Positions 7,748 to 62,010 are shown, counted from the first letter of the stretch. The stretch is 64,000 nt of DNA from Patescibacteria group bacterium (GCA_041650515.1 JBAZLA010000001.1:82710-146709), one strand, 5' to 3'. Made by a program: numbers and translations. Notes: generated by a model from the letters alone, not told the origin.

Positions 7748-7749
7748 AT

Positions 7750-26304: not shown

Positions 26305-26400
26305 TAAGACACTTTTCATCTTCGTACCCCTTCCTGTTGGAGTTTGATGTGAATGAACTATTTTGGAGTATAAAAAAAGACCTATTATCTGGGTCTAAAA
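26305..26400. repeat. Leader repeat, copy 2
   Basis: Duplicate of 24897-24990. It carries a vestigial ATG-AAA-AGT start followed by a stop. Confidence 0.65.
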
Positions 26401-26439
26401 AAATTGTTAAATTATTCTAAAGAAAAGATTAAGTTAGAT

Positions 26440-29251: not shown

Positions 29252-30397
29252 CTAACCGATGTACGACAGCGTATGGCAGCTAGAACAAACCACGATTCGC
29301 CGCCAATCGACGTCGCCGCTCCGGAATGGCTGCAGCGTTTTCTGATCACACTGCTGACAGCGACCATCATAACTGAAGCCGTTAATGTCGTCCCGCGTCG
29401 CCGCAGACATTGGATCAGAAGCAAAAGTCACGTGGCAGTCAGCACACTCCGCCACTCGCCGAGGTCCTTCTTGGGTGATAATCACCCGGGTACGGGGGAA
29501 GTCACAGCCGCCCCAACACCGACACTTAATCGGAAACTCCCGGACACTCTGCAAGCCGTTAGTGGGTGGCTCGTCAGCTTCCTCGGGCTGATCAGTGTCC
29601 GGCTCCTCCGAATCTTCATCGGCCCAGGGACGAAACTTGTGACTACGCCAACAGGTGATCACCGGTCGACGACCTTGTTTGGTCGCCTCCTCACTGATGC
29701 CACCCTGACCGACCCGTTCACCACATTGAGGGCAACGATGGTTATGGGTCTGGCCAGAATCAGACATCGGCAAGGCCAACCAATCAATCAGCTCAACCGG
29801 GCGATCACCTTGCTTGCGGTAGATTTTGCCGCAACTACCGCAGACGACGACGTCACGCTCGCCCTGCTGAGTCTCAATCCGCCGGACCTTGTTGGCCCGA
29901 CTGTCCCAACTGTTGGGACCGTTACTGCAGTAAGGACACTCGTGCCGTGGTTCCCGGCTGGCGGCTGTGGCCAGACTATTCCAATCCGGCCGAGCGTCGG
30001 CTCTGCGGTAATCACGTTTACAACGACCACAGCGCCGAACCGGTTGGTAACCGGTTAACGTCATGGCATTGGCTTCGTGATTACCTTTCCAGTTGCCGCA
30101 GTAGGGGCAACTGTCACAGAACGGCCCATCGGTCTTGCCCAGCGGCAAGTCCTCAAGCCGTATACCTGCCGGCTTGTTAACCGGTGCCGAAGCGGCGAAC
30201 CGGCTAACCCGTGCCGACTCGCTGCGACGATCACCGTGAGCATGAGCCGGCCAAGCCTGGCCCGGGTAGTTTTTCCGCCAGAACGCCTGCATCTGACGCT
30301 TGCGTCCTGACTTCTGCGACCGCTGAACTTTCCAGCCACGCCGCTTATTACACCCCTTCTCGCTGTACCGGTTACACCGGTGTTTTTTGGATTTCAA
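29252..30397 (-). CDS. Cysteine-rich zinc-ribbon-repeat protein with basic N-terminus (GC-rich island)
   Basis: At least nine CxxC-type pairs at regular spacing (CDSCPYC, CGRC, CPYC, CGSCG, CPQCG, CADCH, CQQCD, CSSCH). Start is TTG, preceded by GAGAGGAGGAATC. GC is about 60% against a flank of about 42%. The antisense 319-aa ORF is compositionally implausible. Confidence 0.55.
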   Translation of the reverse strand: MKSKKHRCNRYSEKGCNKRRGWKVQRSQKSGRKRQMQAFWRKNYPGQAWPAHAHGDRRSESARVSRFAASAPVNKPAGIRLEDLPLGKTDGPFCDSCPYCGNWKGNHEANAMTLTGYQPVRRCGRCKRDYRRADARPDWNSLATAASREPRHECPYCSNGPNSWDSRANKVRRIETQQGERDVVVCGSCGKIYRKQGDRPVELIDWLALPMSDSGQTHNHRCPQCGERVGQGGISEEATKQGRRPVITCWRSHKFRPWADEDSEEPDTDQPEEADEPPTNGLQSVREFPIKCRCWGGCDFPRTRVIITQEGPRRVAECADCHVTFASDPMSAATRDDINGFSYDGRCQQCDQKTLQPFRSGDVDWRRIVVCSSCHTLSYIG

Positions 30398-31222: not shown

Positions 31223-31594
31223 TTACTTTTTACTTTTGTCTATTTTATTATTTAAATTATTAATTTCTCGCCAAAGCATGGCGCCGATCTCTCCTGCTAA
31301 CTTACAGACTAAATCGTAATCACTATTCTTTAAATAGCCCTCAACTAAAGAAAAATGCAACAAATATTTTGATTCCTTAAGCGAACCGTAGGAGCTCTCT
31401 AAAAAATTTAAGCGAATTAACGGCCGGCGACGGGCATACCCTTCAATATAGTTGAGAATAACCGACAGGGCGGCCCGCCTTAATTGAGAAACCGACCCAA
31501 AGAGTTCACTTTTAGGAAATAGACTGCTCAAGCGATAAGCCGAATGAACGTATTTATCCATCTTGATCTTCAAATTTTCCTGATACTCATTCAT
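31223..31594 (-). CDS. Four-helix-bundle protein (TIGR02436 / bAvd-like)
   Basis: FG..SQLRRAA.SV..N..EGY.R and GYL...DYD signature. The ORF track extends it upstream (to 31717) across a lysine-rich repeat-encoded stretch that overlaps rpsR. Confidence 0.55.
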   Translation of the reverse strand: MNEYQENLKIKMDKYVHSAYRLSSLFPKSELFGSVSQLRRAALSVILNYIEGYARRRPLIRLNFLESSYGSLKESKYLLHFSLVEGYLKNSDYDLVCKLAGEIGAMLWREINNLNNKIDKSKK

Positions 31595-31632
31595 ATTGTT
31601 TTCTGGCTTTTTTGCTTTCTTGTTTTCTTGAT

Positions 31633-31896
31633 CTACCGGCTGGTAAATGGCAAGATACACATCACCCGAGCGCGCTTGATAGCCATCGCTAGCTTCCGCT
31701 GATGAGTGGCGCAACAACCGCTCCGACGCTGAGGGGCAATTTTACCATAAGAGGAAATAAACCGACGTAGTAACTGAGCATCTTTGTAATCAATATCAGT
31801 GTAAGTATTGAGACAAAAATAACATTCCTTCTTCTCCGGCGCTTTTTCCTGTCGTTTGTTTGATCGATTGTTTGATCTAGTATTTGGTCTAGGCAT
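31633..31896 (-). CDS. rpsR: 30S ribosomal protein S18
   Basis: CYFC...IDYKD..LLRRFIS..GKI..RR.SG.CA..QRKLA.AIKRAR. Confidence 0.8.
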   Translation of the reverse strand: MPRPNTRSNNRSNKRQEKAPEKKECYFCLNTYTDIDYKDAQLLRRFISSYGKIAPQRRSGCCATHQRKLAMAIKRARVMCILPFTSR

Positions 31897-34769: not shown

Positions 34770-34815
34770 GCCCTAAAATAAAAAAAGGAGGCTGATGGCG
34801 CAAGTGCCGGCCTCC
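34770..34815 (-). terminator. Rho-independent terminator (minus strand)
   Basis: ggaggccggcacttgcgccatcagcctcc followed by a T7 run on the minus strand. Confidence 0.65.
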
Positions 34816-34854
34816 GTAAATGACCATTTGGGGCTGGTCAAAGCCCTGCCGTGT

Positions 34855-35298
34855 TCAGTCGGCGCGGACGTCTTCCCGGCCCGGGAAAAACTTGAGCTCC
34901 GAGGGCACAGAAAGTGTCGGCGTCACGATGGTGGTCATAAACCCAAACTGCCGGCTCTTGGCGATGTGCCGGGCGATGAAGTACATCATCGCCGAATTGA
35001 ACTGGCTGGCCAGTTCCGCCAGCTTGTCTTCCGGCACGGGTACTTCCTCGGTGTGGAGTTCGACCCAGACCATCGCCTGTTCGCCGTGGTCGCCGAGACT
35101 GACGATCGGCGGATCGACACAGATGTCTTCCGCCTTGCACGGCATTTCCACAACATCGTTGCCCTGATCGTCATCAACCATGGCGAAGATGTCGTTGGTC
35201 TCGATCAGCGTCCTGGCCAGGCCCCCCAGCTCATGGGGGCGGTGTACCAGACCGGTATCACGCGCCGCAATGCTGGACATACGAATTACGATACGCAT
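34855..35298 (-). CDS. Acidic hypothetical protein (147 aa) in a GC-rich island
   Basis: AAGGAGGAAACC-ATG. Plausible composition. The overlapping plus-strand 215-aa ORF is R/H-rich antisense noise. Confidence 0.5.
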   Translation of the reverse strand: MRIVIRMSSIAARDTGLVHRPHELGGLARTLIETNDIFAMVDDDQGNDVVEMPCKAEDICVDPPIVSLGDHGEQAMVWVELHTEEVPVPEDKLAELASQFNSAMMYFIARHIAKSRQFGFMTTIVTPTLSVPSELKFFPGREDVRAD

Positions 35299-35640
35299 TG
35301 GTTTCCTCCTTGGTTATCACATTTCGACCACCTGAAATCAAACTCTCAAGCCATTGCTGGCTCAATTATCCGACTCCGCCTAAAAAACCCGGAAAAAAGT
35401 AGCCCTATTTACTCTTTTCCCGCTCTTTTAGGTACTAATTGAGAGCGTTGAATAATTATGAAACGCTCTCATCCTGAGCAAAGCGAAGGATCTCTTACGG
35501 TTTGACTACCACGATAATCACTTAGCTCGGTATGAGATAATTAAATCATTCAATAGTTAAAATTAGGAACTTTAGACCTTAACATATTTTCCATTATCTG
35601 TCAACAATTCTCTTTGCCCAAGGAAAATATTACCATCTTC

Positions 35641-40401: not shown

Positions 40402-41166
40402 CTACTCAATTGACTTCGAACTAATTCCCCACAAAAATTCAAACAGCTGCTTGAGGCTAAACGCCAAATCGGGTGAAAAAATAATAAAAGCAGCGTTCTC
40501 CTTGGAAGTAGAGATTACCCCAATATTATTTTCATAAACATAAATACTGGATTGAAGATCAACATATTCTGGTAAATATTTTATCTGCCGCAGATATTCT
40601 TGTTCTTGCACAAAAACAGCCGGGATATCAATCGATTTAGATTTTATTCTGAGCGAACGGCATTTCAAACCCTTGCTAACGCGCCTCTTGACCCAGCTCT
40701 CCATCCACTTAGGATCAACGGTCTGCAAAGTCAATTGCGGCGGCGAGAAATAAACGTATTCCTTTTTAGTCGTGGCCAAGATATCTTCATAAACTTCACG
40801 AGCGGAAAAAGGACCACTATGTATTTGGACAAATGGCTTTTTGTTTTTAGCAGCGTAGATAGCCAAAAAATCCGGCAATAAATCCTTTAATTGCTCTTTC
40901 TGGTGCTCAACCTTTTTGTAGAGCTCTTTAGGATGAGTCGGAATGAAAATCTTCCTTTTACCCTGCAGAATTGAGGTAATGTAGCCTCGTTCAGCTAAAA
41001 CCCGCAAATTATCGTAAATAGCGGTCCGACCCAGCTTTAAATCAACCGCTAATTCATAGGCGGTCGCTTCGCCGCGACTAAGCGCGGCCAAATAAATTTG
41101 GGCTCTTTGTTCGTCTAAACCAGTGGCTAAAAGCCAAGCCAAAAGATTGTTATTCATATATTTCAA
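40402..41166 (-). CDS. TrmB-family transcriptional regulator
   Basis: N-terminal winged helix-turn-helix (QIYLAALSRGEATAYELAVDLKLGRTAIYDNLRVLAERGYI) plus a C-terminal TrmB-like domain. Confidence 0.6.
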   Translation of the reverse strand: MKYMNNNLLAWLLATGLDEQRAQIYLAALSRGEATAYELAVDLKLGRTAIYDNLRVLAERGYITSILQGKRKIFIPTHPKELYKKVEHQKEQLKDLLPDFLAIYAAKNKKPFVQIHSGPFSAREVYEDILATTKKEYVYFSPPQLTLQTVDPKWMESWVKRRVSKGLKCRSLRIKSKSIDIPAVFVQEQEYLRQIKYLPEYVDLQSSIYVYENNIGVISTSKENAAFIIFSPDLAFSLKQLFEFLWGISSKSIE

Positions 41167-41787: not shown

Positions 41788-41864
41788 TGGTGGACCCGAG
41801 GGGATTCGAACCCCTGACCTTCTCCATGCCATGGAGACGCGCTAGCCAGCTACGCTACGGGCCC
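41788..41864 (-). tRNA. tRNA-Ala (anticodon GGC), CCA encoded
   Basis: Cloverleaf folds. G3:U70 Ala identity pair. Anticodon loop aUGGCau. T-loop GGTTCGAATCC. Confidence 0.85.
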
Positions 41865-41869
41865 ATGCT

Positions 41870-42652
41870 TTAATCTTGTTTTTCGCGATAAACTTTTTCG
41901 ATGGCTCTAAAAGAACGTGAATTAAACGGCTTAAACTCATAATCTTCTGCTAACCAAGCCGGGCGAGCAAGATTATCGGGTGCGTCAGGTATATTCAACC
42001 GAGCTAAACTTGCCTGATACCTAGTCTCTACACCATGACGATAATCAACCATTAAACCAACTAAGGCTTTTCTCAACTCATCAAAGTTATTGCCACTAAA
42101 CAATTGCTCAATTGCTTGATAGGTATCCTTAACTGCTGGAATATCCAAATATTTTTGAAACTCTTCTGGCCTAAGTATATAACAAGCGATCAAATCCGCT
42201 TGATACTGGCAACCCGGTCCGCTAGATGGCAAAAGCTCTTTCCCATCCTGATGGGCAATACTAGCCAACTGATCCTCGAGAGAATGCCCGACTTCATGAA
42301 AAAAACAATCCGGTAATTCGTTACCATCCCAATAATCCATATTAATCGTCACCATGTCAAAATCAATCTGCATATCCGGTCGTCGAGGAGTATTACCGCC
42401 TGGGTTATAGCTATCGTTATGGTCCAACCAAACTTTAACCGGGTGATCCAAAAATGGCGCTAAGTGATCAGCCATTTTGGTAAAAAGCGCCCGTGTCTCT
42501 GGCTGATTATGATATTCCTTAAAACGCAGCTCGGCCTGACCGTTCTGATAGACTGATGCCTCTCCTTGCTCTGGGGCCTTGGCCTGATCGCTACCACCTC
42601 GGGCCTCAGGGTGAAAGAATCGACCAAACAATCCTCGTCCTGCTTCGCGCAT
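41870..42652 (-). CDS. Putative zinc metallopeptidase (HExxH)
   Basis: FFHEVGHSLED motif. Start codon uncertain (no clear Shine-Dalgarno sequence). Moderately GC-rich. Confidence 0.45.
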   Translation of the reverse strand: MREAGRGLFGRFFHPEARGGSDQAKAPEQGEASVYQNGQAELRFKEYHNQPETRALFTKMADHLAPFLDHPVKVWLDHNDSYNPGGNTPRRPDMQIDFDMVTINMDYWDGNELPDCFFHEVGHSLEDQLASIAHQDGKELLPSSGPGCQYQADLIACYILRPEEFQKYLDIPAVKDTYQAIEQLFSGNNFDELRKALVGLMVDYRHGVETRYQASLARLNIPDAPDNLARPAWLAEDYEFKPFNSRSFRAIEKVYREKQD

Positions 42653-42764
42653 ATCTTATATTATTTTAGTAATAGCTATTTTAGCAGACTTTTAAAAAAA
42701 ATCAACTCAGTTGACAGAATAAGTGATTAATCTACAATAACAACAATCCAAGGAGGTTTTAGTT

Positions 42765-43100
42765 ATGAATGCCGGTATTGAAAATCCGGAAATATATCTC
42801 GCGTTGTTGCGAGCTACGGCTAATGCGCAAATTCTATACAATCGGGCGGTCTTCTGCCTGATGCACCACGCCTGTAGCCACAGCCACCAACCAAAATTAG
42901 AAACTCCCATGATGGCTTTTGCCGATCTCTGGCAAACTGCCAACACTACGCTCCGGCGGCAAAAAGCTCGAGAGTTTCTACAAGCCGCCACCCGGCTCGA
43001 ACTCGGCTGGGTCTGGCCGGATCAACCGACCGAGGAAGAACCAACCGAGAGGCAACTGGCCGATGCTTTCGCCAATCTGCTTAAGCATCTCAATCATTAG
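42765..43100 (+). CDS. Hypothetical protein (111 aa), GC-rich island
   Basis: AAGGAGGTTTTAGTT-ATG, with a terminator gacccatccgggtc followed by a T8 run downstream. Confidence 0.5.
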   Translation: MNAGIENPEIYLALLRATANAQILYNRAVFCLMHHACSHSHQPKLETPMMAFADLWQTANTTLRRQKAREFLQAATRLELGWVWPDQPTEEEPTERQLADAFANLLKHLNH

Positions 43101-43293
43101 ACCCATCCGGGTCTTTTTTTATACCCCTACGAATTTTTATCATGTCATTGCGAGCGTAGCCCCCGACCCGTGTGTCGGGGGCGGAGCGAGTCGAAGGATA
43201 GTTTATAAAAAAGACCCGGAAGAAAGAGCCCCAATGGGTTTTCTCCGGGTGGCGAATCTTTACGATCCGCTAGTTTTCAGTTGTCCGTGTGCT

Positions 43294-43728
43294 TCAGCAG
43301 TTGAGCACGGTGACGATCCCCACGGAGGAGTTGAAGCCCAGGCTGGACAGGTAGCTTTCGTCCACGGCGGCGACTTCCTCACGGATTTCCTTCGAATTGA
43401 CGTCGTTCTCGTTGACGGCAATATCGTTGGAAACGCACTCCGTTCCTTGATCCATCGGCGCGACGTCGTTGTTCGCATCCTTCGACTGTGCGGCGGTGAT
43501 CACGTTGACCAGGGAAGCGGGCGGCGACACATCAACGGTCGCCGAGAGATTGGGCGCCGCGTAGTTCGCAGCCAACCCGAAGATAATCGCCTGATGGTTC
43601 GCAACGACGGCCGGAGTCTCATCGGTGGCCTCGTTCGCGACCTGAACCGGAGCGGCCTGCGCGACGGTCAGCCCGACCATCAGCACCGCCAAACAACACA
43701 ACGCAATGCACAAAAACAGTTTTCTCAT
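43294..43728 (-). CDS. Secreted hypothetical protein (signal peptide), GC-rich island
   Basis: AAAGGAGAAGAACCG-ATG and an N-terminal signal peptide (MRKLFLCIALCCLAVLMVGLTVAQA). Confidence 0.5.
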   Translation of the reverse strand: MRKLFLCIALCCLAVLMVGLTVAQAAPVQVANEATDETPAVVANHQAIIFGLAANYAAPNLSATVDVSPPASLVNVITAAQSKDANNDVAPMDQGTECVSNDIAVNENDVNSKEIREEVAAVDESYLSSLGFNSSVGIVTVLNC

Positions 43729-44168
43729 CGGTTCTTCTCCTTTTCGAAGAATTTTTGCCCCACCCTGGCTGATTGAAACCCTAGGGTTCCGAATCTGATA
43801 CCAAAGCGGTGCGCCTCCTGATTACCCTAGCAATCCCCTACCGATCGATCCAAATTAACCAAACTAGCTGTCATGGGGGTTGACTACTTCCCACTGACTA
43901 GCTCCCAAGGGTTAGTTGGGTCTCATGCTTGTTGAGGGATAACAGATCTAGTGCTAGTCTGGCTAGCAGTTTGATCAATCGTGATCGAATCGGTTTTGAA
44001 GGTTGCTTTTGGGTTATCATAATAATACTAATTTTATTTTTATTTAGCAAATAAAAAATTGCTTCGGCCGCCGGTAACCAATTGACAGAATGATTTATAA
44101 ATAATAAAGTGAGTTATTCGGTCTAATTTTGGAATTTGGAATTTTCAACTTTCTTGGAGGGCAGTAAA

Positions 44169-44645
44169 ATGACGACCTTTTCATCTTTAGTTGACTCTTT
44201 GGTTGGCTCGGTGGTGGGCACCAAGTCGTTTGGTATGGCCGTGGCGGATCTGTTGGCCTACCTGGCCAAAATGCAGCCGCTGCAGGATCCCAAACAACAG
44301 CGGTTGCTGCAGGCCGCCGAAGCATCCTTCCGCGACGCACCAGCAATGAAACCCTGGCTCGCCTGCGTCGCAACTTGGCAAATTCTCGAGGATATTTTCA
44401 CCGAATTGGCTGACACCCAATCAGCCTTTGAGGATTCGCACCCTGGCTCCGAAGAAGAGACCAGGGTAGATCAAGTCACCAGTGATCTATCAGATGTCCT
44501 GAACGATCTACACGATCTAAAGGGGATCGACGATCTCCAAGACGACCAACTAATGGCCGAGGAGGTTCGCCGCTTGACTCACAAATGTTTCCTGGCGATC
44601 AACGCCTGGCTGGAAATCATGGGTTGGTTACCTCAGGAGGGATAA
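44169..44645 (+). CDS. Hypothetical acidic protein (paralog pair member 1)
   Basis: TGGAGGGCAGTAAA-ATG. Followed by terminator gagggtaaccatcccctc-T7, which is nearly identical to the one after 44751..45197. Confidence 0.5.
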   Translation: MTTFSSLVDSLVGSVVGTKSFGMAVADLLAYLAKMQPLQDPKQQRLLQAAEASFRDAPAMKPWLACVATWQILEDIFTELADTQSAFEDSHPGSEEETRVDQVTSDLSDVLNDLHDLKGIDDLQDDQLMAEEVRRLTHKCFLAINAWLEIMGWLPQEG

Positions 44646-44750
44646 CCAACCGACGTCACAACCCCGAGGGTAACCATCCCCTCTTTTTTTATTGACAAAT
44701 CACTAAAAATAATATTAGATAAGCATAACTTTAACTGCGAGGTCACGAGA

Positions 44751-45197
44751 ATGGAAGAAGGGTTTAGCCGGTTACTCAATACCCTGCGGCAATCCGCCGC
44801 CGCACTCGAGCGCAGGGACGCGCTTATGGAGATCATGGGAATATTCCAACGCTTGGAAATATTCCAATCCTGCCAGAACTTATTGGCAGGACTCATAGCG
44901 TGTTTTGGTCTCTGTCCCCGACTACCGGGACTTGGCCAGCGGCTGTTTCTCCGCCACCTCTTCGTGGCACTCAGCCAGCACCTCGGCACCGAGGTCCAAA
45001 AGCGGGAAGCGGCAACCCCGCCGACCTGGGAAGAACCAGCGGGCTACCCCGATATGGTGGTCGCCCTCACCAAGGCCATGCAGGTCCTGGAAAAGGATGC
45101 CAACCTGGAAACCATCCACGGAGCAGCCGCAGACGGCTTTGCCGCTCTGTTCCAATGGCTCGGTTGGCTCGGAGCCTTTTCCGGCACAACAGACTGA
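44751..45197 (+). CDS. Hypothetical protein (paralog pair member 2)
   Basis: Followed by gagggtacccactccctc-T7 terminator, a duplicate of the upstream one. Weak Shine-Dalgarno sequence. Confidence 0.4.
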   Translation: MEEGFSRLLNTLRQSAAALERRDALMEIMGIFQRLEIFQSCQNLLAGLIACFGLCPRLPGLGQRLFLRHLFVALSQHLGTEVQKREAATPPTWEEPAGYPDMVVALTKAMQVLEKDANLETIHGAAADGFAALFQWLGWLGAFSGTTD

Positions 45198-45350
45198 CTA
45201 GCACCACGTTGCTGGCCAGCGAGGGTACCCACTCCCTCTTTTTTTATTGCTAAACGACGCAGGTTATATAACCTAAATTTATTTTACGACACAAAATCTA
45301 ATTTAAATATAAACAAATAATCAAATAACCAGCAGAAATTATCAACCAAT

Positions 45351-45400
45351 TGTTCCACGTGGAACATTCCGTAGGGGCAGGTCGCGACCTGCCCCTACGG
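45351..45400. promoter_or_regulatory. Perfect palindromes: TGTTCCACGTGGAACA (16 bp) + ccgtaggggcaggtcgcgacctgcccctacgg (32 bp)
   Basis: The first palindrome recurs at 47355-47372. Candidate operator/recombination site upstream of the cupin-like pair. Confidence 0.45.
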
Positions 45401-45459
45401 ATTTGACATCCACCAACCGATGTCCTAAAGTTAAAAATCAACCCAGGAGGATTTTCAAA

Positions 45460-45852
45460 ATGTTTAAACGGGAAGTTTTTCTCAAAGAAAAGTTGGCTGG
45501 CTGTCAGCCAACTGATCTGAGGATCTATTACTCTGGCGGGATTGTCAGCGCCCACATGAGCAAAGACAACCGCCGCTTCAGCCACGGGGCAGTCACCAGC
45601 CTCATGCCGGAATATGAGATTGAGGTCGGGGAGAAAGAAACCGTGGTTGTCCTGAAAGGGACTCTCAAGGTTCGCTTTCTTCACAAGAACGCTCCGGCGG
45701 ATGAGCCACGCTTTGACGAACGCTGGACCAAGGTCCATACCGGCGAAACCGTGGTCTTCGAAGCCGGAACTGGCGTCATTCTCGCCTGCGATCAGGAAGA
45801 GCCAGTCGAATTCTGGTGCGAATACGGCGACGCGCCAACCAACTCGGAGTAA
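45460..45852 (+). CDS. Small beta-barrel (cupin-like?) protein, paralog 1
   Basis: CAGGAGGATTTTCAAA-ATG. Shares GTL.IRF ... K.H.G..V...AG..V motifs with the 45968 gene. Followed by a terminator. Confidence 0.5.
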   Translation: MFKREVFLKEKLAGCQPTDLRIYYSGGIVSAHMSKDNRRFSHGAVTSLMPEYEIEVGEKETVVVLKGTLKVRFLHKNAPADEPRFDERWTKVHTGETVVFEAGTGVILACDQEEPVEFWCEYGDAPTNSE

Positions 45853-45967
45853 ACCCTTTTCTGGTAAACTCCACCTACCCCCCCCCACCTCGTGGGGTTT
45901 TTTATTTCTATTGACATTAAAGCTATTAAAAATTAAAGTTAAATTAACAAATAGGAGGTTGCAAAAA

Positions 45968-46354
45968 ATGGGAAGTTTCTTGGATCCAGAAATAAACACC
46001 AAGCCGGAAATTAAGAACAACGGTGGACTAATTAAAGTCTACTACTTCAATCAGTCTCAGTGTTATTTAGGGATCGTGACAGGGGGAGCTGAATATCAGT
46101 ACACCCCGGATAAAGATGAACCCATCGAAGTCACGGTCGGAACTCTTCAAATTCGCTTCCCACTAAAATACCCTAAACCACGTCAGTACCCGTGGTGCCA
46201 AAGGCTCCGAAAATACCACGTCGGCCAGAGAGTTACACTTCAAGCTGGCGTAACTGTCTGCCTATCAACGCTGGAACTTTCAGGAGCCGCTTTCAATGCC
46301 CATATTGGGCCCTATCCAACCATCGTCAAAGAGGATGGGCCTCAAAAGGGCTAA
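45968..46354 (+). CDS. Small beta-barrel (cupin-like?) protein, paralog 2
   Basis: TAGGAGGTTGCAAAAA-ATG. Paralog of 45460..45852. Followed by terminator atcccccatcgggga-T7. Confidence 0.5.
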   Translation: MGSFLDPEINTKPEIKNNGGLIKVYYFNQSQCYLGIVTGGAEYQYTPDKDEPIEVTVGTLQIRFPLKYPKPRQYPWCQRLRKYHVGQRVTLQAGVTVCLSTLELSGAAFNAHIGPYPTIVKEDGPQKG

Positions 46355-46485
46355 ATATAGGCAAATATCCCCCATCGGGGATTTTTTTATTCCCTCCCCC
46401 TGCTAAGGGGGAGGTGGCCGCAGGCCGGAGGGGGTCTTTGGGGTGGGAGGAGTATCAAAAAACACCCCATTTCTAGAGTGATCTT

Positions 46486-46562
46486 TGGTGGGCGTAAGTG
46501 GGCTCGAACCACTGACCTCTGCAATGTGAATGCAGCGCTCTAACCAGCTGAGCTATACGCCC
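46486..46562 (-). tRNA. tRNA-Val (anticodon CAC), CCA encoded
   Basis: Acceptor gggcgta/tacgccc. Anticodon loop uUCACau. T-arm agtggTTCGAGCccact. Confidence 0.85.
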
Positions 46563-46823
46563 TTATTTATCGTCTTTTTTAATTGCTTTGCTTAAATAAA
46601 CTGTAACTAAAACCACTACTACAGTTATTACTACAGCATAAATAAACTTCGCTACTAGCGAACCACCATTTTCTAAAGGAAAAATATAGTCAATCAGACC
46701 CTTAATTGCTTCGTTCCAGGCTAAACCCGCAACTAAGCCAAAAGCCGCAATAACATAGCTCAAGGTCCGCTGGCGGATCTCCTGCCTCAAATTTGGATCT
46801 TTTGGTGCTTGTTCTTCAGCCAT
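46563..46823 (-). CDS. Small membrane protein (about 86 aa)
   Basis: Start MAEEQAPK... The upstream part of the tracked ORF overlaps tRNA-Ala. C-terminal transmembrane segment. Confidence 0.35.
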   Translation of the reverse strand: MAEEQAPKDPNLRQEIRQRTLSYVIAAFGLVAGLAWNEAIKGLIDYIFPLENGGSLVAKFIYAVVITVVVVLVTVYLSKAIKKDDK

Positions 46824-46845
46824 AAATTTTTGTTCAGCGCTTTTT

Positions 46846-46919
46846 TGGACTCGAGGGGGATCGAACCCCTGATCTCCGCAATGCGAATGCGGCGCTCTAC
46901 CAACTGAGCTACGAGCCCT
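46846..46919 (-). tRNA. tRNA-Ala (anticodon CGC)
   Basis: G3:U70. Anticodon loop uUCGCau. T-arm aggggTTCGATCcccct. Confidence 0.85.
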
Positions 46920-47023
46920 CAAAAAGAGCTAAACAGATTAATAATTAAATACTCGGGCATTGTCTCCGCCTTACCACTAGAAATGACCACAAATCTGGCC
47001 TTAAGCTTATCCAACTCGTCTAA

Positions 47024-47095
47024 CGTCCCCGATAGGAATTGAACCTATATCTAGGGCTTAGGAGTCCCTTGTTCTATCCGTTGAACTACGGGGAC
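47024..47095 (-). tRNA. tRNA-Arg (anticodon CCU)
   Basis: Acceptor gtccccg/cggggac. Anticodon loop cUCCUaa with one A:G mismatch at the stem base. T-arm ataggTTCAATTcctat. Confidence 0.75.
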
Positions 47096-47107
47096 ATCAG
47101 GCGAATT

Positions 47108-47151
47108 GGGCTTAGGAGTCCCTTGTTCTATCCGTTGAACTATTGGGGCAT
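47108..47151 (-). pseudogene. tRNA-Arg(CCU) 5'-half duplicate (fragment)
   Basis: Copies acceptor-5', D-arm and anticodon arm of the adjacent gene. Flanked by inverted ggcgaat/attcgcc. Confidence 0.7.
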
Positions 47152-47215
47152 ATTCGCCTCTATGAGGAATGAAATCCTTCGCTCCGCTCAGGACGGAGCC
47201 TACTTATTTTCTTAC

Positions 47216-47264
47216 CGCCCCCATGAGGAATCCCACCCTCACGGGTGGTGGCCCGTTAGGGCCA
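47216..47264 (-). repeat. tRNA-Arg(CCG) 3'-end duplicate (cgcccccatgaggaatc) + double mini-hairpin module
   Basis: 17-nt copy of the tRNA 3' end, followed by ccaccc-tcac-gggtgg and tggccc-gtta-gggcca hairpins. Confidence 0.7.
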
Positions 47265-47278
47265 GAACCTTAAATATC

Positions 47279-47350
47279 CGCCCCCATGAGGAATCGAACC
47301 TCAATTTTGGGATCCGGAATCCCACGTCCTATCCATTAAACGATGAGGGC
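47279..47350 (-). tRNA. tRNA-Arg (anticodon CCG)
   Basis: Acceptor gccctca/tgggggc (one G:U pair). Anticodon loop uUCCGga with G37. T-arm tgaggTTCGATTcctca. Confidence 0.8.
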
Positions 47351-47548
47351 CGAGTTGTTCCACGTGGAACAATTTGTATGGAAAATTCATGAATTGCCAA
47401 TGCACAAACTAAGTTTTTGTTTATAATTAGATTAAATCTAGCGTCGTAAAATTATTTAATCTACTTTTTAAATAATTTTAATCTAATTTTGGCTAAACAA
47501 ATTATTAGTGGTATAATTCTAGCTGATAATTAATAGAAAATCAATTTT

Positions 47549-48595
47549 ATGGAACTGCTTTTTGGTCTGGTTGTCCTAGCATTAACTGGCGCCGTTGTTA
47601 TTTTAATTTATCTTTTGCTGAAAAAAAAGCCGGCTAACCAAAACGACAGTGGTTTAGTGTTGATTCAAAATCAATTAAATGAGCTAACCCGCACAATTGA
47701 TACGCGAATTGGCGAATCATCAAAATTAATGCACGACTCCGTCCGGACTCAGTTTACCGAATCGCAAAAACTAATTAAAGAGATCACTCAAGAGCTCTCA
47801 CTGGTTAAAGAAACTGGCAAACGCGTTGAGGGCTTTGCCGATCAACTGCAGAATCTTCAAGATATTCTCAAAAATCCAAAACAGCGTGGCATCCTGGGCG
47901 AATATTATTTAGAAACTGTTCTTAAAAACATTTTACCACCAGCCTCGTATCAAATGCAATATAAATTCAAGAATGGCGAAATCGTTGACGCGGTAATTTT
48001 TATTAAAGAAAAAATTATTCCCATTGATTCTAAATTCTCACTAGAAAATTATAATAAAATTTTGGAAGAACGCGACGTTAGCAAAAAAGAAGAACTAGAA
48101 AAAATATTTAAACAAGATCTCAAAAACCGGATTGACGAAACGGCAAAATATATTCGACCAAATGAAAACACGATGGATTTTGCTTTTATGTTTATTCCAT
48201 CCGAAGGAGTTTTTTATGATCTATTGATTAACCAAGTCGGCGCGATCAAAGTTAATACTGCTGATTTGATTGAATACGCTTTTAAACAAAGACACGTCAT
48301 TATTGTTTCACCAACTTCCTTTTTTGCTTATCTACAAACTGTTTTACAGGGTCTGCGCGCGCTGCAGGTTGAAGAAAAAACGCAAGAAATTATTAAGCAG
48401 GTTAATAAACTAGGAAAACATCTTAGCAACTATCAAACTTATTGGGATTCACTAGGCAAAAACTTAACTACCACCGTATCAGCTTATAACAAAGGTTCGC
48501 ACGAGTTTCGCCAGATTGATAAAGACATCATCAAAATTGCTGGGCAGGGGACTGAAACGGAAATTCCGGAGATTGATAAACCCAAGGAAGAATAA
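47549..48595 (+). CDS. rmuC: DNA recombination protein RmuC
   Basis: N-terminal transmembrane segment, a coiled coil, and an RmuC core (DFAFMFIPSEGVFYDLL). Confidence 0.75.
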   Translation: MELLFGLVVLALTGAVVILIYLLLKKKPANQNDSGLVLIQNQLNELTRTIDTRIGESSKLMHDSVRTQFTESQKLIKEITQELSLVKETGKRVEGFADQLQNLQDILKNPKQRGILGEYYLETVLKNILPPASYQMQYKFKNGEIVDAVIFIKEKIIPIDSKFSLENYNKILEERDVSKKEELEKIFKQDLKNRIDETAKYIRPNENTMDFAFMFIPSEGVFYDLLINQVGAIKVNTADLIEYAFKQRHVIIVSPTSFFAYLQTVLQGLRALQVEEKTQEIIKQVNKLGKHLSNYQTYWDSLGKNLTTTVSAYNKGSHEFRQIDKDIIKIAGQGTETEIPEIDKPKEE

Positions 48596-54507: not shown

Positions 54508-54873
54508 ATGAAACCCAAACGCGGCAGCCAGAAGATCGAGGTGGATTTTCTGTACGTGGTGATGCCACGGGCACATCGAGTGGTCTTCGTTGCCACTCAA
54601 GACGTGCCCCACGGAGTCAACCTCGAAAAAGTGGTCCAAAAATATGTTTTAAATGAACTCAAAAAAGCGGGGGAAGGACATCGTTTCTTCTGGTATCGTC
54701 TCGACAACCACATGAGGCCGCCGAGGAACCGCCCTCGTCCAGGCGATTTCCATGTACTCCAGGTCTATTACGGATCGACGGCAAATCGGGACGCAACCAA
54801 GGATATGTCTCAACCAGATTCCAAATGGCTGCGACAGGCTGTCCATGCCCTGCTGCGGCAACTGGCGGCCTAG
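54508..54873 (+). CDS. Hypothetical protein (121 aa), GC-rich islet
   Basis: AGGAGGGGTTT-ATG. Has a downstream hairpin and T-run. Confidence 0.5.
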   Translation: MKPKRGSQKIEVDFLYVVMPRAHRVVFVATQDVPHGVNLEKVVQKYVLNELKKAGEGHRFFWYRLDNHMRPPRNRPRPGDFHVLQVYYGSTANRDATKDMSQPDSKWLRQAVHALLRQLAA

Positions 54874-57997: not shown

Positions 57998-58279
57998 TTA
58001 TCCAACTGAGTGATTACCTATTCTTAATTTAATAATTTCTTTCTGCTGGCTATTGTGTTTCAACTCATATTCTCTTTTAGCAGCTACCAAATTACTAACA
58101 TAAGCCTCATAATAAACAAGAGCTAACGGCCTTTTGTCTTTTGTTGATTTTACTTCACCCTGATTATGTTTTAAAAAACGGGAACTCAAATCAGAAGAAT
58201 AGCCAATATATAACCACCTCGGATCTCTTATACTCTGTAGGGCATAGACATAAAACATGCCATAAGTATAAAAAACCAA
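57998..58279 (-). CDS. GIY-YIG nuclease domain protein (small, about 86-93 aa)
   Basis: FYVYAL...YIGYSSDL..R...H..G. Likely start is MFYVYAL at 58258. Confidence 0.7.
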   Translation of the reverse strand: MVFYTYGMFYVYALQSIRDPRWLYIGYSSDLSSRFLKHNQGEVKSTKDKRPLALVYYEAYVSNLVAAKREYELKHNSQQKEIIKLRIGNHSVG

Positions 58280-58902: not shown

Positions 58903-59718
58903 TTAGGCGTCATCCTCCTCCCACGGATACCGGTTGTCCGGTTCGGACTCGGGAACGTGTGGCCCCCGCCGTGGCGGTTCCTCGCATTGCTGCTCGGTCC
59001 GCCCGCGACGCCGGCGGCGGCGGATGATCAGCCAAACGACCAGCAACAGCACCGGGATGCCAATCCGCAGCGCCCAGGTCTTGATCGCCAGATTCCGCTG
59101 GTCCGATTTGGCCTTGGCGTGGCTGGCATTGATCATTTCCATCGCCGCTTGGATGTCAGCCGGCGTGGCTTCGACTGCGGCGTCCTCCTTGAGCCGACGG
59201 TTTTCGGCCAGCGCCGTTTCCAGCGCTGCAGCCTGATCAGCCTGCGCCTGAGCGAGCTGGCCAGCCGGGCTGTCGGGCAACGGATCCGCTTGGTCTTCCA
59301 AGCCCCGCGGATACCAGACCGACGCCGAAGCGCCGGAACTGGCACCCATCAGCTTGTAGCGACCAGAAGCGGACACGTTCCAGGTGGATTCACCGGGAGG
59401 CAATTCGGTCTTTTCTCCAGATCCCTGAAGGGCAAAGACCTTGCCCGAATGGACCGACACCGTCAGCTTGGGTGCCCGCAACGGGTCCATCCAGACGGTC
59501 CGCACGACTTCGTTTTTGGGCAAGCTGTACGGCCCGTTCCAGACGGGGTTTGGGGTTTGTGTTGCTGTCTGCTTCGCCGCGGAGTTGGTCTTGAGCGACT
59601 CGAGCTGCTTTTTGGCCAGCTCGATCAGCTTATCCAGACCAATCTTGGCTTCACCGGTCAGACCGCCGGCCGTCCGTTCGAGAAGCTCAATCTCCTCTTC
59701 GGACAGCGGCTGGCCCGC
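58903..59718 (-). CDS. Hypothetical protein with C-terminal transmembrane segment and poly-Arg tract; continuous in frame with the upstream gene across a TAG
   Basis: Open frame from the codon after TAG(59719-59721) to 58903. The post-stop sequence is coiled-coil-like (EEEIELLERTAGGLTGEAKIGLDKLIELAKKQLESL). The ORF track starts at a TTG (59523). GC-rich. Confidence 0.4.
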   Translation of the reverse strand, partial: AGQPLSEEEIELLERTAGGLTGEAKIGLDKLIELAKKQLESLKTNSAAKQTATQTPNPVWNGPYSLPKNEVVRTVWMDPLRAPKLTVSVHSGKVFALQGSGEKTELPPGESTWNVSASGRYKLMGASSGASASVWYPRGLEDQADPLPDSPAGQLAQAQADQAAALETALAENRRLKEDAAVEATPADIQAAMEMINASHAKAKSDQRNLAIKTWALRIGIPVLLLVVWLIIRRRRRRGRTEQQCEEPPRRGPHVPESEPDNRYPWEEDDA

Positions 59719-60414
59719 CTAGATCTTGGTGCGGATTGCCTCGAGCCGGACAATCTTCAGCGCCTGCTCGTAGTCGGCGTACTCCGCCGCGATCTCGGTT
59801 GCCACCGTCTGGGCCGGATTAACTTGATCAGTTGCCCACCAGAACGGGGTGTTGTGGCCACAGACCCGGACCCAAATCCCCGAAGGAAAAAGGCCGAGAA
59901 TCAGGATCACCAGGACCAACCGGACGCCGGACGCCGCGAGGCGTTTGGGCCACATGCCCGTGGGCAGGCCCCACGCACGGCCGATTGCCCAAAGGCAAAG
60001 TAGCACCAGAAACAGACCGACGATAAAGGTGACGCTGAAGTGGAGCGGGGTGAGGGTCAGCCCGATGATGATAATCAACGGGTAGACCAGGATGGTCGCG
60101 AGAGTCAGGGTCACCGCCCCCCAACCGCGCTTGGCGATTCGCGCCGCCAGATCGGCCAGGTAGAGGGAGATGCCTTTGACCTTGTCCTCGGTAAGACCGA
60201 GGAGTGCGCCCAGCTCCTTGACGACCTTGGTCACCTTTTCCTCGAGAAACAGGGCCAAAACACCGCCGACCAACCAGGCGAGTACTTTCTGCTTGCGGGT
60301 CATCGGCTTGTCGTCTTCGATTCCGAGCCAGGCGAGGAGCATGGTGAAAAACTGAACGTACGGATCTTTCGTTTCGCCGAGGGGATCGGCTGTGGGCTTG
60401 ATGTTCTCGGACAT
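59719..60414 (-). CDS. Polytopic membrane protein (231 aa), GC-rich operon
   Basis: GAAGGAGTACTGCC-ATG. About 5 transmembrane segments. Ends at an in-frame TAG. Confidence 0.5.
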   Translation of the reverse strand: MSENIKPTADPLGETKDPYVQFFTMLLAWLGIEDDKPMTRKQKVLAWLVGGVLALFLEEKVTKVVKELGALLGLTEDKVKGISLYLADLAARIAKRGWGAVTLTLATILVYPLIIIIGLTLTPLHFSVTFIVGLFLVLLCLWAIGRAWGLPTGMWPKRLAASGVRLVLVILILGLFPSGIWVRVCGHNTPFWWATDQVNPAQTVATEIAAEYADYEQALKIVRLEAIRTKI

Positions 60415-60456
60415 GGCAGTACTCCTTCGTTCGTTGCTATCGAGTTGATTCGTTGG

Positions 60457-61110
60457 TTACTTCTTCTTGGGCATTAGCGCGGACATCATGGACGACTGCA
60501 AATGATTGGACATGGCCGTCGCGAAACCCCGCAAGGGAGACCGCTTGATCCAGCCGTGGTCCAAACAATACTGCGTTCGTTGCCAATCGTCCTGCCGCTC
60601 CTTGCCCCAACTTCCCATGAGCAGATACAAATACGGCAAGTCGTCGCGACTCTTGGTCGCAGCGACTACCTGCCGGAAATGATCCTGCGCCCAGGTTGGG
60701 AGATGGGTATACCAGTTGTTGAAAGCCTCATCGGCCGCTTTCAGAGCCGCTTCATCAAGTTTAAAGACTTTGACGGTCTCTTTTTTGGTTCTCAGCTGAG
60801 CACCTTCACGCGCCGGCGGAAGCTCTTTGTCCACGATAACGCTTCCCTCCATGAGGGTATGCGCTTTCTTGGCTTCAACCTCCATCGAGGCGGCTTCGTC
60901 TCCGAAACCGAGTCCGCCAACAGTACCAACCGCTTGCGCTTTTCCGGCGCCAGCGATTGTCTGTTTTATGCCGAATAGGCGATCAAGTACGAAGGCGGCA
61001 ATAGCCGCTACCGTGAAATCGCCAGCATCCGGTACAAAATGACGCAGAAAGCTCTGGACACCAGACGCAGGTTCACTTGCCGCCGAAGCGGTTTTCTTGT
61101 CCTCGGACAT
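60457..61110 (-). CDS. Hypothetical protein (217 aa), first gene of GC-rich operon
   Basis: ACGGAGGATACGAAA-ATG. No recognisable motif. Confidence 0.5.
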   Translation of the reverse strand: MSEDKKTASAASEPASGVQSFLRHFVPDAGDFTVAAIAAFVLDRLFGIKQTIAGAGKAQAVGTVGGLGFGDEAASMEVEAKKAHTLMEGSVIVDKELPPAREGAQLRTKKETVKVFKLDEAALKAADEAFNNWYTHLPTWAQDHFRQVVAATKSRDDLPYLYLLMGSWGKERQDDWQRTQYCLDHGWIKRSPLRGFATAMSNHLQSSMMSALMPKKK

Positions 61111-61590: not shown

Positions 61591-62010
61591 CTAACCGCTA
61601 CCAGTAATAGTTTTAAACACTAAAGTTAAAATAGCATAGCTAGAAAAAACCACTATAATTCCAATAATCGACCAAACCATAATTTCACGACCTTTTTTGA
61701 CTCGCTCCTCATTGCCACCGGAAAAAATCCAATAAAAACCACCCAGCACAAAAGCCAAAAAGGCTAACGCGCCAATTGGAAAGATCATAAAATAAGCAAC
61801 CTGAGCAGCAAAACCGGTTAGCCGCGCCGCCGTGTCATCACTAGCCGAGTCATTATAACTGCGATAGCCCATAGGATCGCCTAAACAGATCGTTCCATCT
61901 GGTGTGCCTTCTGGACATTTCACCTCATCAGCCGCTAGAACCGCTAAACTATTGAATAATAAAATAGCTAAACAAGCTGAAAATAAGATCAATTTGATTT
62001 TGTTTTGCAT
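61591..62010 (-). CDS. TrbC/VirB2-like pilin family protein (candidate)
   Basis: Signal peptide plus two hydrophobic helices (FAAQVAYFMIFPIGALAFLAFVLGGFYW, MVWSIIGIIVVFSSYAIL), arranged as in conjugative pilin. Size 139 aa. Confidence 0.4.
   Translation of the reverse strand: MQNKIKLILFSACLAILLFNSLAVLAADEVKCPEGTPDGTICLGDPMGYRSYNDSASDDTAARLTGFAAQVAYFMIFPIGALAFLAFVLGGFYWIFSGGNEERVKKGREIMVWSIIGIIVVFSSYAILTLVFKTITGSG

Follow-up and report, generated by a model that had tools for sequence, protein, structure and literature searches.

Two putative chromosomal parS sites flank a tRNA cluster in an uncultivated Patescibacteria genome

The window analyzed here, a 64-kb stretch of DNA from an uncultivated member of the Patescibacteria, contains two copies of the palindrome TGTTCCACGTGGAACA, which bracket a group of tRNA genes. 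Judged from sequence, these are most probably chromosomal parS sites (we put the probability near 85%) and not the borders of a mobile island. They are identical to validated parS sites, rare here, and conserved at the same locus in relatives. ParB is presumably encoded elsewhere in this genome and would bind these sites, and the locus probably belongs to the origin domain. As an element, parS is of a known kind, and this is another instance of it; mildly curious is its link, in these bacteria, with tRNA genes.

The palindromes and their surroundings

The two sites lie among the following features (coordinates count from the first nucleotide of the window).

45276..45350, plus strand: left arm of an old inverted duplication, outer flank of parS-1; motif TTTACGACAC at 45283-45292
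45351..45366, no strand assigned: parS-1, TGTTCCACGTGGAACA, perfect 16-bp palindrome, exact match, predicted ParB nucleation site
45368..45401, no strand assigned: GC-rich perfect palindrome of 34 bp with a 15-bp stem, between parS-1 and the cupA promoter
46486..47350, minus strand: tRNA cluster, with Val(CAC) 46486-46562, Ala(CGC) 46846-46918, Arg(CCT) 47023-47096 and Arg(CCG) 47279-47350
46563-46823: DUF5654 gene within the tRNA cluster
47098..47278, minus strand: tRNA debris, comprising one pseudo 5' half plus a tandem pair of pseudo 3' ends
47356..47371, no strand assigned: parS-2, TGTTCCACGTGGAACA, exact match, inside the 18-mer palindrome TTGTTCCACGTGGAACAA (47355-47372)
47372..47457, minus strand: right arm of the duplication, outer flank of parS-2, within the rmuC upstream region; motif TTTACGACAC at 47441-47450 (minus)
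47549..48595, plus strand: rmuC (Pfam RmuC, E=2.8e-52), conserved core gene that anchors the synteny rmuC-S20-holA-polA

A preliminary description of this DNA had the palindrome occurring exactly twice. This was borne out: the window holds two copies (45351-45366 and 47356-47371), 2.0 kb apart, and still two when three mismatches are tolerated (shuffled sequences predict 0.13). No further convincing parS site was seen in an extra 10 kb on each side, which brought coverage to ∼84 kb of the 472-kb contig. Upstream of both tRNA-Arg(CCG) and rmuC, parS-2 is 5 nt from the 5' end of the former and 177 nt from the start codon of the latter.

Both copies fit the parS class pattern tGTTNCACGTGAAACa. 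The 16-mer is the same as parS of P. putida and as parS2 and parS3 of P. aeruginosa (PMC4368675 Table 1), and departs from the general and B. subtilis consensus, TGTTNCACGTGAAACA (PMC7022226), at one base, G for A at position 11. When species-representative genomes were scanned for TGTTCCACGTGGAACA, at least 120 loci matched. Among the matches listed, sites came from many phyla and were often clustered, adjoining parB or dnaA; 37 loci had at least two perfect copies within 8 kb, 11 had a DnaA-like ORF, and in 31 of the 118 loci from outside the Patescibacteria the 8-kb block also contained a ParB gene. As for the earlier concern that the palindrome may be a generic motif, it is generic across bacteria, with many phyla represented, but rare in this genome (two copies in 64 kb).

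Both sites belong to an old inverted duplication of the segment upstream of rmuC, with a copy on either side of the tRNA cluster, an arrangement common to the relative L135. Local alignment of the left arm with the reverse complement of the right arm gave 104 columns at 70% identity, with a score of 50 (shuffles, 34.5 ± 2.6), and motif TTTACGACAC has only these two occurrences in the window. A weak promoter-like sequence, TTGGCA-16-TACAAA (47400-47373, minus strand), stops 2 nt before parS-2; it was read from the sequence, and a promoter scan made no call. Within the tRNA debris, the pseudo 5' half is that of tRNA-Arg(CCT) (47108-47151, 41 of 44 nt identical), and the tandem pseudo 3' ends are those of tRNA-Arg(CCG) (47154-47176 and 47215-47237); the L135 locus has no such debris. 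The perfect palindrome that follows parS-1, previously given as 32 bp, is present with a length of 34 bp and may act as a terminator-like or insulator hairpin. A sibling hairpin, GTAGGGGCGG..CCGCCCCTAC, is found after recA at 22265-22292.

The locus in relatives and its relation to the origin

For comparison, we assembled 80 loci with RmuC relatives, of which 12 carry the same tRNA cluster, tRNA-Ala(CGC)/Arg(CCT), upstream of rmuC and 68 do not. Sites resembling parS (≤2 mismatches) were found at 10 of the 12. Among the other 68, three had such sites: a perfect one in L153, adjoining a relocated tRNA cluster, and a single 2-mismatch site in each of L191 and L192, about what chance predicts. 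Variants in relatives are exactly the known parS variants TGTTTCACGTGAAACA and TGTTCCACGTGAAACA. Sites lay within 1 kb of tRNA genes at 9 of 10 Patescibacteria loci, versus 0 of the 118 loci listed from other phyla. In Kerfeldbacteria L061, one copy falls within a tRNA-tRNA spacer.

The closest relative found was L135 (RmuC 71% identical). Here two perfect copies of TGTTCCACGTGGAACA likewise bracket the tRNA cluster, one between tRNA-Arg(CCG) and rmuC and one at the position equivalent to parS-1, with tRNA-Ala(GGC) 196 nt from the left site. L135 has neither the cupin pair nor the genes that lie here between tRNA-Ala(GGC) and parS-1. Conservation of the palindromes at the same locus without these genes indicates that they are core features, rather than cassette ends or a private operator. 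Across the four copies in the two genomes, 16 of 16 positions are invariant, whereas the flanks average 56% column identity, which argues for selection on the site itself.

Several observations bear on where the locus lies relative to the origin. No dnaA gene was found in the first 25 kb rightward of rmuC, and GC skew is still unswitched there, pointing to an origin further right. In the relative L165, a GC-skew minimum coincides with dnaN and dnaA, 4-6 kb past rmuC. Magasanikbacteria have S20-holA-polA-rpmH-dnaA within 10 kb, an order matched by rmuC-S20-holA-polA of the window, and in relatives the same gene block is 5-10 kb from dnaA.

Genes for ParB, ParA and SMC were absent from the 64-kb window and from 10 kb on either side, and parB was found within 8-10 kb of none of 13 Patescibacteria parS loci. 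No ParB was found in 1.26 Mb of Patescibacteria DNA that includes these 13 loci, with one neighborhood sampled per genome. Conceivably, then, the sites are relics, kept by chance or recent ancestry after ParB loss, or are now read by a different protein; some Patescibacteria orders are mostly without parB, as in Paceibacterales, where it is present in 26 of 135 species (19%; PMC12704722 Dataset S1). We consider this quite unlikely. All four copies in the two genomes are perfect while their flanks have diverged by 20–30%, and a distant parB would escape notice because only one neighborhood per genome was sampled. Moreover, orders close to this genome are 98–100% parB-positive, with chromosomal parB in 62 of 63 Magasanikbacterales and 10 of 10 Buchananbacterales species; in Moranbacterales, another neighboring order, ParB is present in 81 of 84 species (PMC12704722 Dataset S1). 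RpoB of this genome is nearest that of Falkowbacteria (81%) and then Buchananbacteria (73%); the order to which the host belongs is uncertain.

If the palindromes are parS, established ParABS biology suggests how they would work. ParB dimers would read each 16-bp palindrome via their helix-turn-helix domains, bind CTP, close into a clamp, and slide to adjacent DNA. With the two sites 2.0 kb apart, one ParB–DNA complex would span the tRNA cluster and its neighbors. This complex would be what ParA moves and where SMC condensin loads, thereby segregating the origin-proximal chromosome region.

Genes between the tRNA loci

To the left of the sites are the following genes.

40402-41157: TrmB-like HTH protein
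41788..41864, minus strand: tRNA-Ala(GGC), 3' end directed away from the orphan genes
41870..42652, minus strand: HExGH zincin-like protein, 260 aa (NCBI WC480_00585), GC 0.443, core-like
42765-43100, plus strand: 111-aa orphan, GC-rich, own promoter and terminator
43294-43728, minus strand: 144-aa signal-peptide orphan, GC-rich, own promoter and terminator
44169-44645, plus strand: 158-aa orphan, GC-rich, own promoter and terminator
44751-45197, plus strand: 148-aa orphan, GC-rich, own promoter and terminator

Between the sites, next to the tRNA cluster, are two more.

45460..45852, plus strand: cupA, cupin-like orphan, 130 aa, GC 0.545; promoter TTGACA-17-TAAAGT at 45403-45431, terminator 45883-45897
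45968..46354, plus strand: cupB, paralog of cupA, 128 aa; promoter 45911-45939, terminator 46367-46382

The stretch from tRNA-Ala(GGC) to the tRNA cluster had been described as GC-rich and as a candidate genomic island. Its landmarks were confirmed: tRNA-Ala(GGC) at 41788-41864 and the Val/Ala/Arg/Arg cluster at 46486-47350, both on the minus strand. The HExxH metallopeptidase-like protein is also real (41870-42652), with HExGH and a downstream Asp kept in a small family (H119, E120, G122, H123 and D153 conserved) that has just 23 representatives among 1.84 billion clusters. Its AF2 model has a pLDDT of 86.8, and its best PDB fold matches are zinc peptidases, at non-significant scores (E≥0.04). 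The reported signal-peptide protein corresponds to the 144-aa product (43294-43728), whose N-terminus reads as typical. For cupA, matches to Pfam Cupin_2 (E=3.4e-4) and Ppnp (E=3.7e-4) both fall below cut-off, and a single-sequence AF2 model is all-beta with a pLDDT of 53. Of two proposed paralog pairs, cupA/cupB stands (27% identity, E=3e-9), but similarity between the 158-aa and 148-aa proteins is undetectable (E=3). The small genes all carry their own promoter of the TTGACA type and hairpin/T-run terminator; the near-identity claimed for these terminators amounts to 86% over 35 nt for the 158-aa and 148-aa genes. GC richness likewise holds in part: 42765-45852 is at 0.52 (window, 0.44), but the HExxH gene is at 0.44 and the tRNA cluster at 0.47. 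Five of the six genes in 42765-46354 are GC-rich (0.53–0.59, versus 0.38–0.45 for core genes). GC-richer patches occur elsewhere in the window (e.g. 58903-61110 at 0.60), as do at least seven similar GC-rich orphans, singly at many places.

The interval does vary between relatives: in L135 it measures ∼0.9 kb and carries no homologous genes, L157 has 8.3 kb with genes for surface proteins, and here it comprises 4.6 kb of orphans. A mobile island was not supported. No integrase, recombinase or transposase was detected in ORFs of 41870-47372 (Pfam, PHROGs, NCBIfam and PADLOC), no pair of att direct repeats derived from a tRNA 3' end borders the gene block, and no relatives of the orphans were found in phages, plasmids or IMG/VR. 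The four orphans of 42765-45197 have no family in Pfam, PHROG, NCBIfam or PADLOC, and relatives of the seven proteins from HExGH to cupB were absent from the 80 related loci. With the genes missing from L135 and all 80 loci, and with RmuC of the nearest comparator only 71% identical, the pattern fits gain as a unit as well as piecemeal gain or loss. The genes of 42765-46354 are lineage-specific orphans that accumulated in and beside a conserved tRNA-parS-rmuC locus.

The palindromes had also been proposed to be an operator or recombination sites delimiting a cassette. Neither proposal held up, since TGTTCCACGTGGAACA is the universal chromosomal parS sequence, kept in relatives with or without the cupin pair and orphans. 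An operator would be read by a local dedicated regulator, such as the TrmB-like protein, co-regulating the tRNA operon and the cupin pair. Each copy does lie upstream of an inward-facing transcription unit (tRNA operon or cupin pair), parS-2 abuts what reads as a weak promoter of the tRNA operon, and TrmB-like genes are a few kb from parS clusters in the window, in Kerfeldbacteria L061 and in Moraniibacteriota L122. Yet these TrmB-like proteins are paralogs, only 21–35% identical; in three other Patescibacteria genomes, no parS site lies within 6 kb of the true orthologue of the L061 protein; and such genes are simply abundant, with three within 12 kb in L216. The 16-mer, on the other hand, is pan-bacterial and adjoins parB in phyla with no such regulator nearby, making an operator very unlikely.

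We regard it as highly improbable that the palindromes serve as recombination or inversion sites, or delimit a mobile cassette made up of the cupin pair and tRNA cluster. Their location in inverted-repeat flanks, the tRNA fragments (47108-47237), which hint at earlier rearrangement, and the differences among relatives in genes between and beside the sites would be in keeping with this. But recombinases, integrases and transposases are absent in or near the segment, as are relatives in phages, plasmids and IMG/VR, and other relatives have tandem sites, confined to one side of the tRNA cluster. In L135, the sites bracket only tRNAs, in the same orientation to rmuC, indicating that the bracket is older than the cupin insertion; it shows no inversion. 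Scarcely credible is a role as RNA hairpins (e.g. a processing signal in the tRNA-precursor 5' leader, or a terminator): parS-2 precedes the mature 5' end of tRNA-Arg(CCG) by 5 nt and the L061 copy precedes tRNA-Ala(GGC) by 4 nt, but the hairpin is weak, folding in context equals that of shuffles (z=0.01), in other relatives 120–700 nt separate the sites from the closest tRNA, on one flank or the other, loop bases and the exact parS sequence are kept, more than an RNA stem needs, and no compensatory stem-preserving changes were seen among relatives.

Implications and comparison with known systems

Reading the palindromes as parS removes a false lead: paired palindromes by tRNA genes resemble a mobile-element border or a private operator, yet these are probably a standard bacterial centromere. 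For annotation of Patescibacteria, the tRNA(Val/Ala/Arg)-rmuC locus is a likely partition site and a landmark of the origin region. In these tiny genomes parS neighbors tRNA genes and is not close to parB, which sets them apart from the other phyla sampled. Among the neighboring orphans are a cupin-like pair and a zincin-like HExGH protein of a rare family. One could imagine that in Magasanik-, Falkow- and Kerfeldbacteria-like lineages the centromere is built around the tRNA cluster, with parS kept adjacent to tRNA genes or in the gaps separating them (here the operon has an inverted duplicated module at either end), far from parB, and strong tRNA transcription coupled to ParB clamp loading or SMC loading, for example by confining or directing the ParB/SMC complex. 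We consider this whole reading unlikely; alternatively, the parS–tRNA linkage reflects inherited gene order only.

Like an invertible segment, the 2-kb segment lies between inverted repeats (∼100 nt here, ∼180 nt in L135), but no invertase is encoded, the two genomes examined agree in orientation, and identity between the repeats is down to 70–80%. With tRNA-linked islands and integrative elements, the locus shares lineage-specific genes of mostly deviant GC between tRNA genes, content that varies among relatives, and short tRNA fragments nearby. It differs in having no integrase and no bounding att repeats, in a tRNA-Ala(GGC) that faces away, in host-type promoters and terminators, and in orphans that have no mobile-element relatives and whose GC-rich counterparts occur singly elsewhere.

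Sites of other ParB-family proteins (Noc, KorB, and ParB of secondary chromosomes and plasmids) are also palindromes of the 16-bp class bound by ParB-fold HTH proteins. The Noc-binding site is ATTTCCCGGGAAAT and the KorB OB is TTTAGCSGCTAAA. Unlike these and unlike secondary-chromosome and plasmid parS, TGTTCCACGTGGAACA belongs exactly to the primary-chromosome parS class (in part after PMC7022226 Table 1). Compared with chromosomal parS elsewhere (the Spo0J sites of B. subtilis, parS1-4 of P. aeruginosa, and those of P. putida and M. xanthus), the Patescibacteria sites are unusual in adjoining tRNA genes, with parB not within 8-10 kb, and the two sites here in forming an inverted duplication around the tRNA cluster. 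They are alike in being perfect palindromes, present in very few, clustered copies in the ∼84 kb covered here, kept across relatives, in a neighborhood that is origin-proximal in those relatives.

Identity of the palindromes

The palindrome TGTTCCACGTGGAACA occurs exactly twice in the 64 kb, as the preliminary description had it, at 45351-45366 and 47356-47371. No further site with up to three mismatches to this 16-mer was found in the window (0.13 expected). The two copies lie on either side of a tRNA cluster upstream of rmuC, in the following layout.

Features of the locus (window coordinates)
41788-41864, minus strand: tRNA-Ala(GGC), ARAGORN and Rfam concordant
41870-42652, minus strand: HExGH protein, 260 aa, zincin-like
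42765-45197: orphan block, genes for 111-aa, signal-peptide 144-aa, 158-aa and 148-aa proteins
45351-45366: first palindrome (parS-1)
45368-45401: 34-bp perfect palindrome, following parS-1
45460-45852, plus strand: cupA, cupin-like
45968-46354, plus strand: cupB, cupin-like
46486-47350, minus strand: tRNA-Val(CAC), Ala(CGC), Arg(CCT) and Arg(CCG), ARAGORN and Rfam concordant
47356-47371: second palindrome (parS-2)
47549-48595, plus strand: rmuC

The window lies within a 472.5-kb metagenomic contig (ENA ERZ27247363, k141_1064255; NCBI locus tags WC480_); for a window position w, the contig coordinate is 130753 - w. By RpoB, this genome is nearest, among named groups, to Candidatus Falkowbacteria (81%) and then Buchananbacteria (73%), and the two closest genomes encountered (P0229 and P0231) have 80-81% RpoB identity; in relatives retrieved via RmuC, DnaA carries the name Magasanikbacteria.

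A 17-mer was scanned against one genome per species. The matches listed, at least 120 loci, come from Bacteroidota, Acidobacteriota, sphingomonads, Xanthomonadales, Verrucomicrobiota, myxobacteria, Pseudomonas and two Patescibacteria. Among these listed matches, 37 loci have at least two perfect copies within 8 kb, 55 have at least two sites of the class TGTTYCACGTGRAACA, and 11 have a DnaA-like ORF; ParB, the protein that binds the chromosome-partition site parS, is encoded within the same 8-kb block in 31 of the 118 listed loci from outside Patescibacteria. The 16-mer is recognized by ParB of P. putida and of B. subtilis, and it is the P. putida parS as listed. It is also identical to parS2 and parS3 of P. 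aeruginosa (PMC4368675, Table 1), and is covered by the general chromosomal parS consensus TGTTNCACGTGAAACA (PMC7022226). Since these literature sequences match, the identity of the palindrome as parS is settled. Judged by sequence, then, the two palindromes form a canonical pair of parS sites. This kind of element is known; what is new is its occurrence in an uncultivated Patescibacteria genome.

Conservation of the parS pair and alternative roles

For comparison, we analyzed 80 metagenomic loci with RmuC relatives (55-71% identity), counting parS-class sites with up to two mismatches. A tRNA-Ala(CGC)/Arg(CCT) cluster lies upstream of rmuC in 12 of the 80, and 10 of these 12 have such parS-class sites within 2.3 kb. 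Among the other 68, one (L153) has a perfect parS adjoining a relocated tRNA cluster, and two (L191 and L192) have one 2-mismatch match each, about the chance expectation. The variants seen in relatives, TGTTTCACGTGAAACA and TGTTCCACGTGAAACA, are textbook ones. In the closest relative found (L135, RmuC 71% identical), the order is tRNA-Ala(GGC), 196 nt, parS, ∼730 nt, tRNA-Val/Arg/Arg, 120 nt, parS, rmuC; thus, the bracketing of the tRNA cluster by two parS sites is common to both genomes. L135 has neither the cupin pair nor the 3.5 kb of genes that separate tRNA-Ala(GGC) from parS-1 in the window. When the four parS copies of the two genomes were aligned, all 16 positions of the site were invariant, versus a mean column identity of 56%, which argues for selection on the parS site itself.

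This perfect conservation of the 16-mer is ill-suited to the idea that the sites are relics in a lineage devoid of ParB, an improbable reading. A role of the palindromes as RNA hairpins is unsupported, because folding of the palindromes in context was no better than that of shuffled sequences and parS-to-tRNA distances vary among loci. In three Patescibacteria lineages, a TrmB-like gene is found close to clustered parS sites, which pointed to a TrmB-like regulator as another possible reader of the palindrome. These proteins are, however, paralogs (21-35% identity), and no parS occurs within 6 kb of the orthologues that the Kerfeldbacteria copy has in three other genomes; the family being merely abundant, we rejected this reading.

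The flanks of the two parS copies are related to each other in inverted orientation, both in the window and in L135. The duplication in L135 spans 179 nt centered on parS, with 80% identity (score 171, versus 33.6 ± 2.1 for shuffles); that in the window spans 104 columns on the outer sides only, with 70% identity (score 50, versus 34.5 ± 2.6). Both contain exactly two copies of the motif T[GT]T[GA]CGAC[GA]C, every one on the outer side of a parS at a distance of 58-73 nt (68-85 nt from start to start). The simplest reading is that the segment upstream of rmuC, parS included, would have undergone an ancient inverted duplication, with the new copy placed across the tRNA cluster from the old one. 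Evidence for inversion of the parS-tRNA segment was not seen: the tRNAs of both genomes face the same way with respect to rmuC, and a recombinase was not found at the segment.

Between tRNA-Arg(CCT) and tRNA-Arg(CCG) (47098-47278) lies tRNA debris that is not present in L135. It consists of a pseudo 5' half of tRNA-Arg(CCT) at 47108-47151, with 41/44 positions identical, and of two pseudo 3' ends of tRNA-Arg(CCG) in tandem, at 47154-47176 and 47215-47237, spaced 61-63 nt apart. These remnants may have been left by duplication or by earlier integration and excision.

Orphan genes and the island question

The stretch from tRNA-Ala(GGC) to the tRNA cluster had been proposed as a candidate genomic island, GC-rich in composition. 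The five genes at 42765-45852 are indeed GC-rich (0.53-0.59, versus 0.38-0.45 for core genes), but cupB (0.47) and the HExGH gene (0.44) are not. Orphan genes just as GC-rich are found at 5055-5294, 22356-24899, 29252-30397, 34795-35442, 54508-54873 and 58903-61110, with GC-rich genes also at 25033-27231; these scattered genes (0.53-0.65), mostly hypothetical, sit amid core genes. Two AT-rich orphans (GC 0.32-0.34) are in the window as well. In base composition, the genome is a fine-grained mosaic. The length of the tRNA-Ala(GGC)-to-cluster interval varies in relatives: L135 has 0.9 kb there, and another relative (L157) has 8.3 kb with surface-protein genes. The interval can reasonably be described as a variable spot gathering lineage-specific genes. 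No integrase or flanking att repeats were found at the stretch, and blastn of the region against phage and plasmid collections gave no match, so a mobile island is not demonstrable. None of the seven proteins matched PHROG, NCBIfam or PADLOC families (0/7) or had a relative in any of the 80 related loci. The HExGH family and cupA, searched against IMG/VR, gave no match. With the phage/plasmid, IMG/VR, PHROG and PADLOC searches all negative, we rejected a mobile-element origin of the orphan genes.

Each orphan gene has its own terminator. The promoter-like sequence TTGACA-17-TAAAGT occurs three times in the 64 kb (0.01 expected), at 44082-44110, 45403-45431 and 45911-45939, in every case preceding an orphan gene of the stretch, and TTGACA-type promoters also lie upstream of other window genes. 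These putative expression signals are native-looking. As for the two paralog pairs that had been suggested, cupA and cupB are true paralogs, but the 158-aa and 148-aa proteins have no detectable relationship; the 111-aa protein was likewise rejected as a paralog of these two, similarity not being detectable. The single-sequence model of cupA (pLDDT 53) was too poor for a fold search, and PDB sequence searches with cupA and the HExGH protein gave no match. The HExGH motif of the latter is conserved within a very small family (23 representatives among 1.84 billion clusters). Its predicted structure is confident (pLDDT 86.8), and the best fold matches are zinc peptidases, at non-significant scores.

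Two perfect GC-rich hairpins, at 45368-45401 (between parS-1 and the cupA promoter) and 22265-22292 (3' of recA, between convergent genes), have the common arms GTAGGGGCRG / CYGCCCCTAC. The sequence GTAGGGGCNG, with one mismatch allowed, is over-represented (20 matches versus 8.8 expected). A candidate GC-rich intergenic repeat family, GCGAGCG..AGCC, was rejected, its repetition being no greater than chance.

Small accessory genes amid core genes
31223-31714: member of the 23S rRNA intervening-sequence protein family (PF05635)
57998-58258: stand-alone GIY-YIG nuclease domain protein
61591-62010: T4SS-pilin-like protein (PF18895)

To the left of the window, some 10 kb from its start, locus L126 (1-9100) carries a run of de novo purine genes, encoding SAICAR synthase, parts of FGAM synthase, AIR synthase, adenylosuccinate synthase and FolD. 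Such genes are unusual in Patescibacteria, in which nucleotide biosynthesis is generally missing.

Origin, ParB and the parS-tRNA linkage

GC skew keeps a single sign over the window and the next 9 kb rightward, which points to an origin further right, >25 kb from the parS sites. In one relative (L165), dnaN and dnaA lie 4-6 kb past rmuC, at the skew minimum. Magasanikbacteria genomes have S20-holA-polA-rpmH-dnaA within ∼10 kb, and the window order rmuC-S20-holA-polA is as in that group. These data suggest that the rmuC block was ancestrally origin-proximal; beyond polA, the window genome has extra genes or a rearrangement. Its DnaA was not among the best 120 matches to a relative's DnaA.

ParB was not found in the window or in 10 kb on either side, and tblastn with 25 ParB proteins of other loci gave no match in the window, its flanks or 97 Patescibacteria loci (1.26 Mb). 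Literature text on ParB in Patescibacteria gave no match; counts came from a supplementary table (PMC12704722, Dataset S1). At the order level used there, in which the names Falkowbacteria and Kerfeldbacteria are absent, chromosomal parB is present in 62/63 Magasanikbacterales, 10/10 Buchananbacterales, 81/84 Moranbacterales and 187/193 Saccharimonadales species, and in only 26/135 Paceibacterales species. From these frequencies, we infer that the window genome probably encodes ParB.

Thirteen Patescibacteria parS loci were compiled: the window, L135, L143, L153, L157, L165, L178, L179, L186, L196, L204, L061/L214 and L122. Dense parS arrays occur in L122 (Candidatus Moraniibacteriota; 6414-7896), with 6 perfect and 5 near-perfect sites in 1.5 kb, and in L061 (Candidatus Kerfeldbacteria; 140-1509), with 4 perfect sites in 1.4 kb. 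One perfect parS of L061 lies inside the 38-nt spacer between tRNA-Val(CAC) and tRNA-Ala(GGC).

Of 10 Patescibacteria loci, 9 have a parS site and a tRNA gene no more than 1 kb apart, whereas this is so in none of 118 loci of other phyla. Most of the Patescibacteria loci share common ancestry, and parS in L061 has the same tRNA-Val(CAC)/Ala(GGC) neighbors; the linkage may thus reflect one inherited arrangement and not functional coupling. In these lineages, parS and parB appear unlinked: parB neighbors parS in 0 of the 13 Patescibacteria loci (8-10 kb each), as against 31 of 118 elsewhere.
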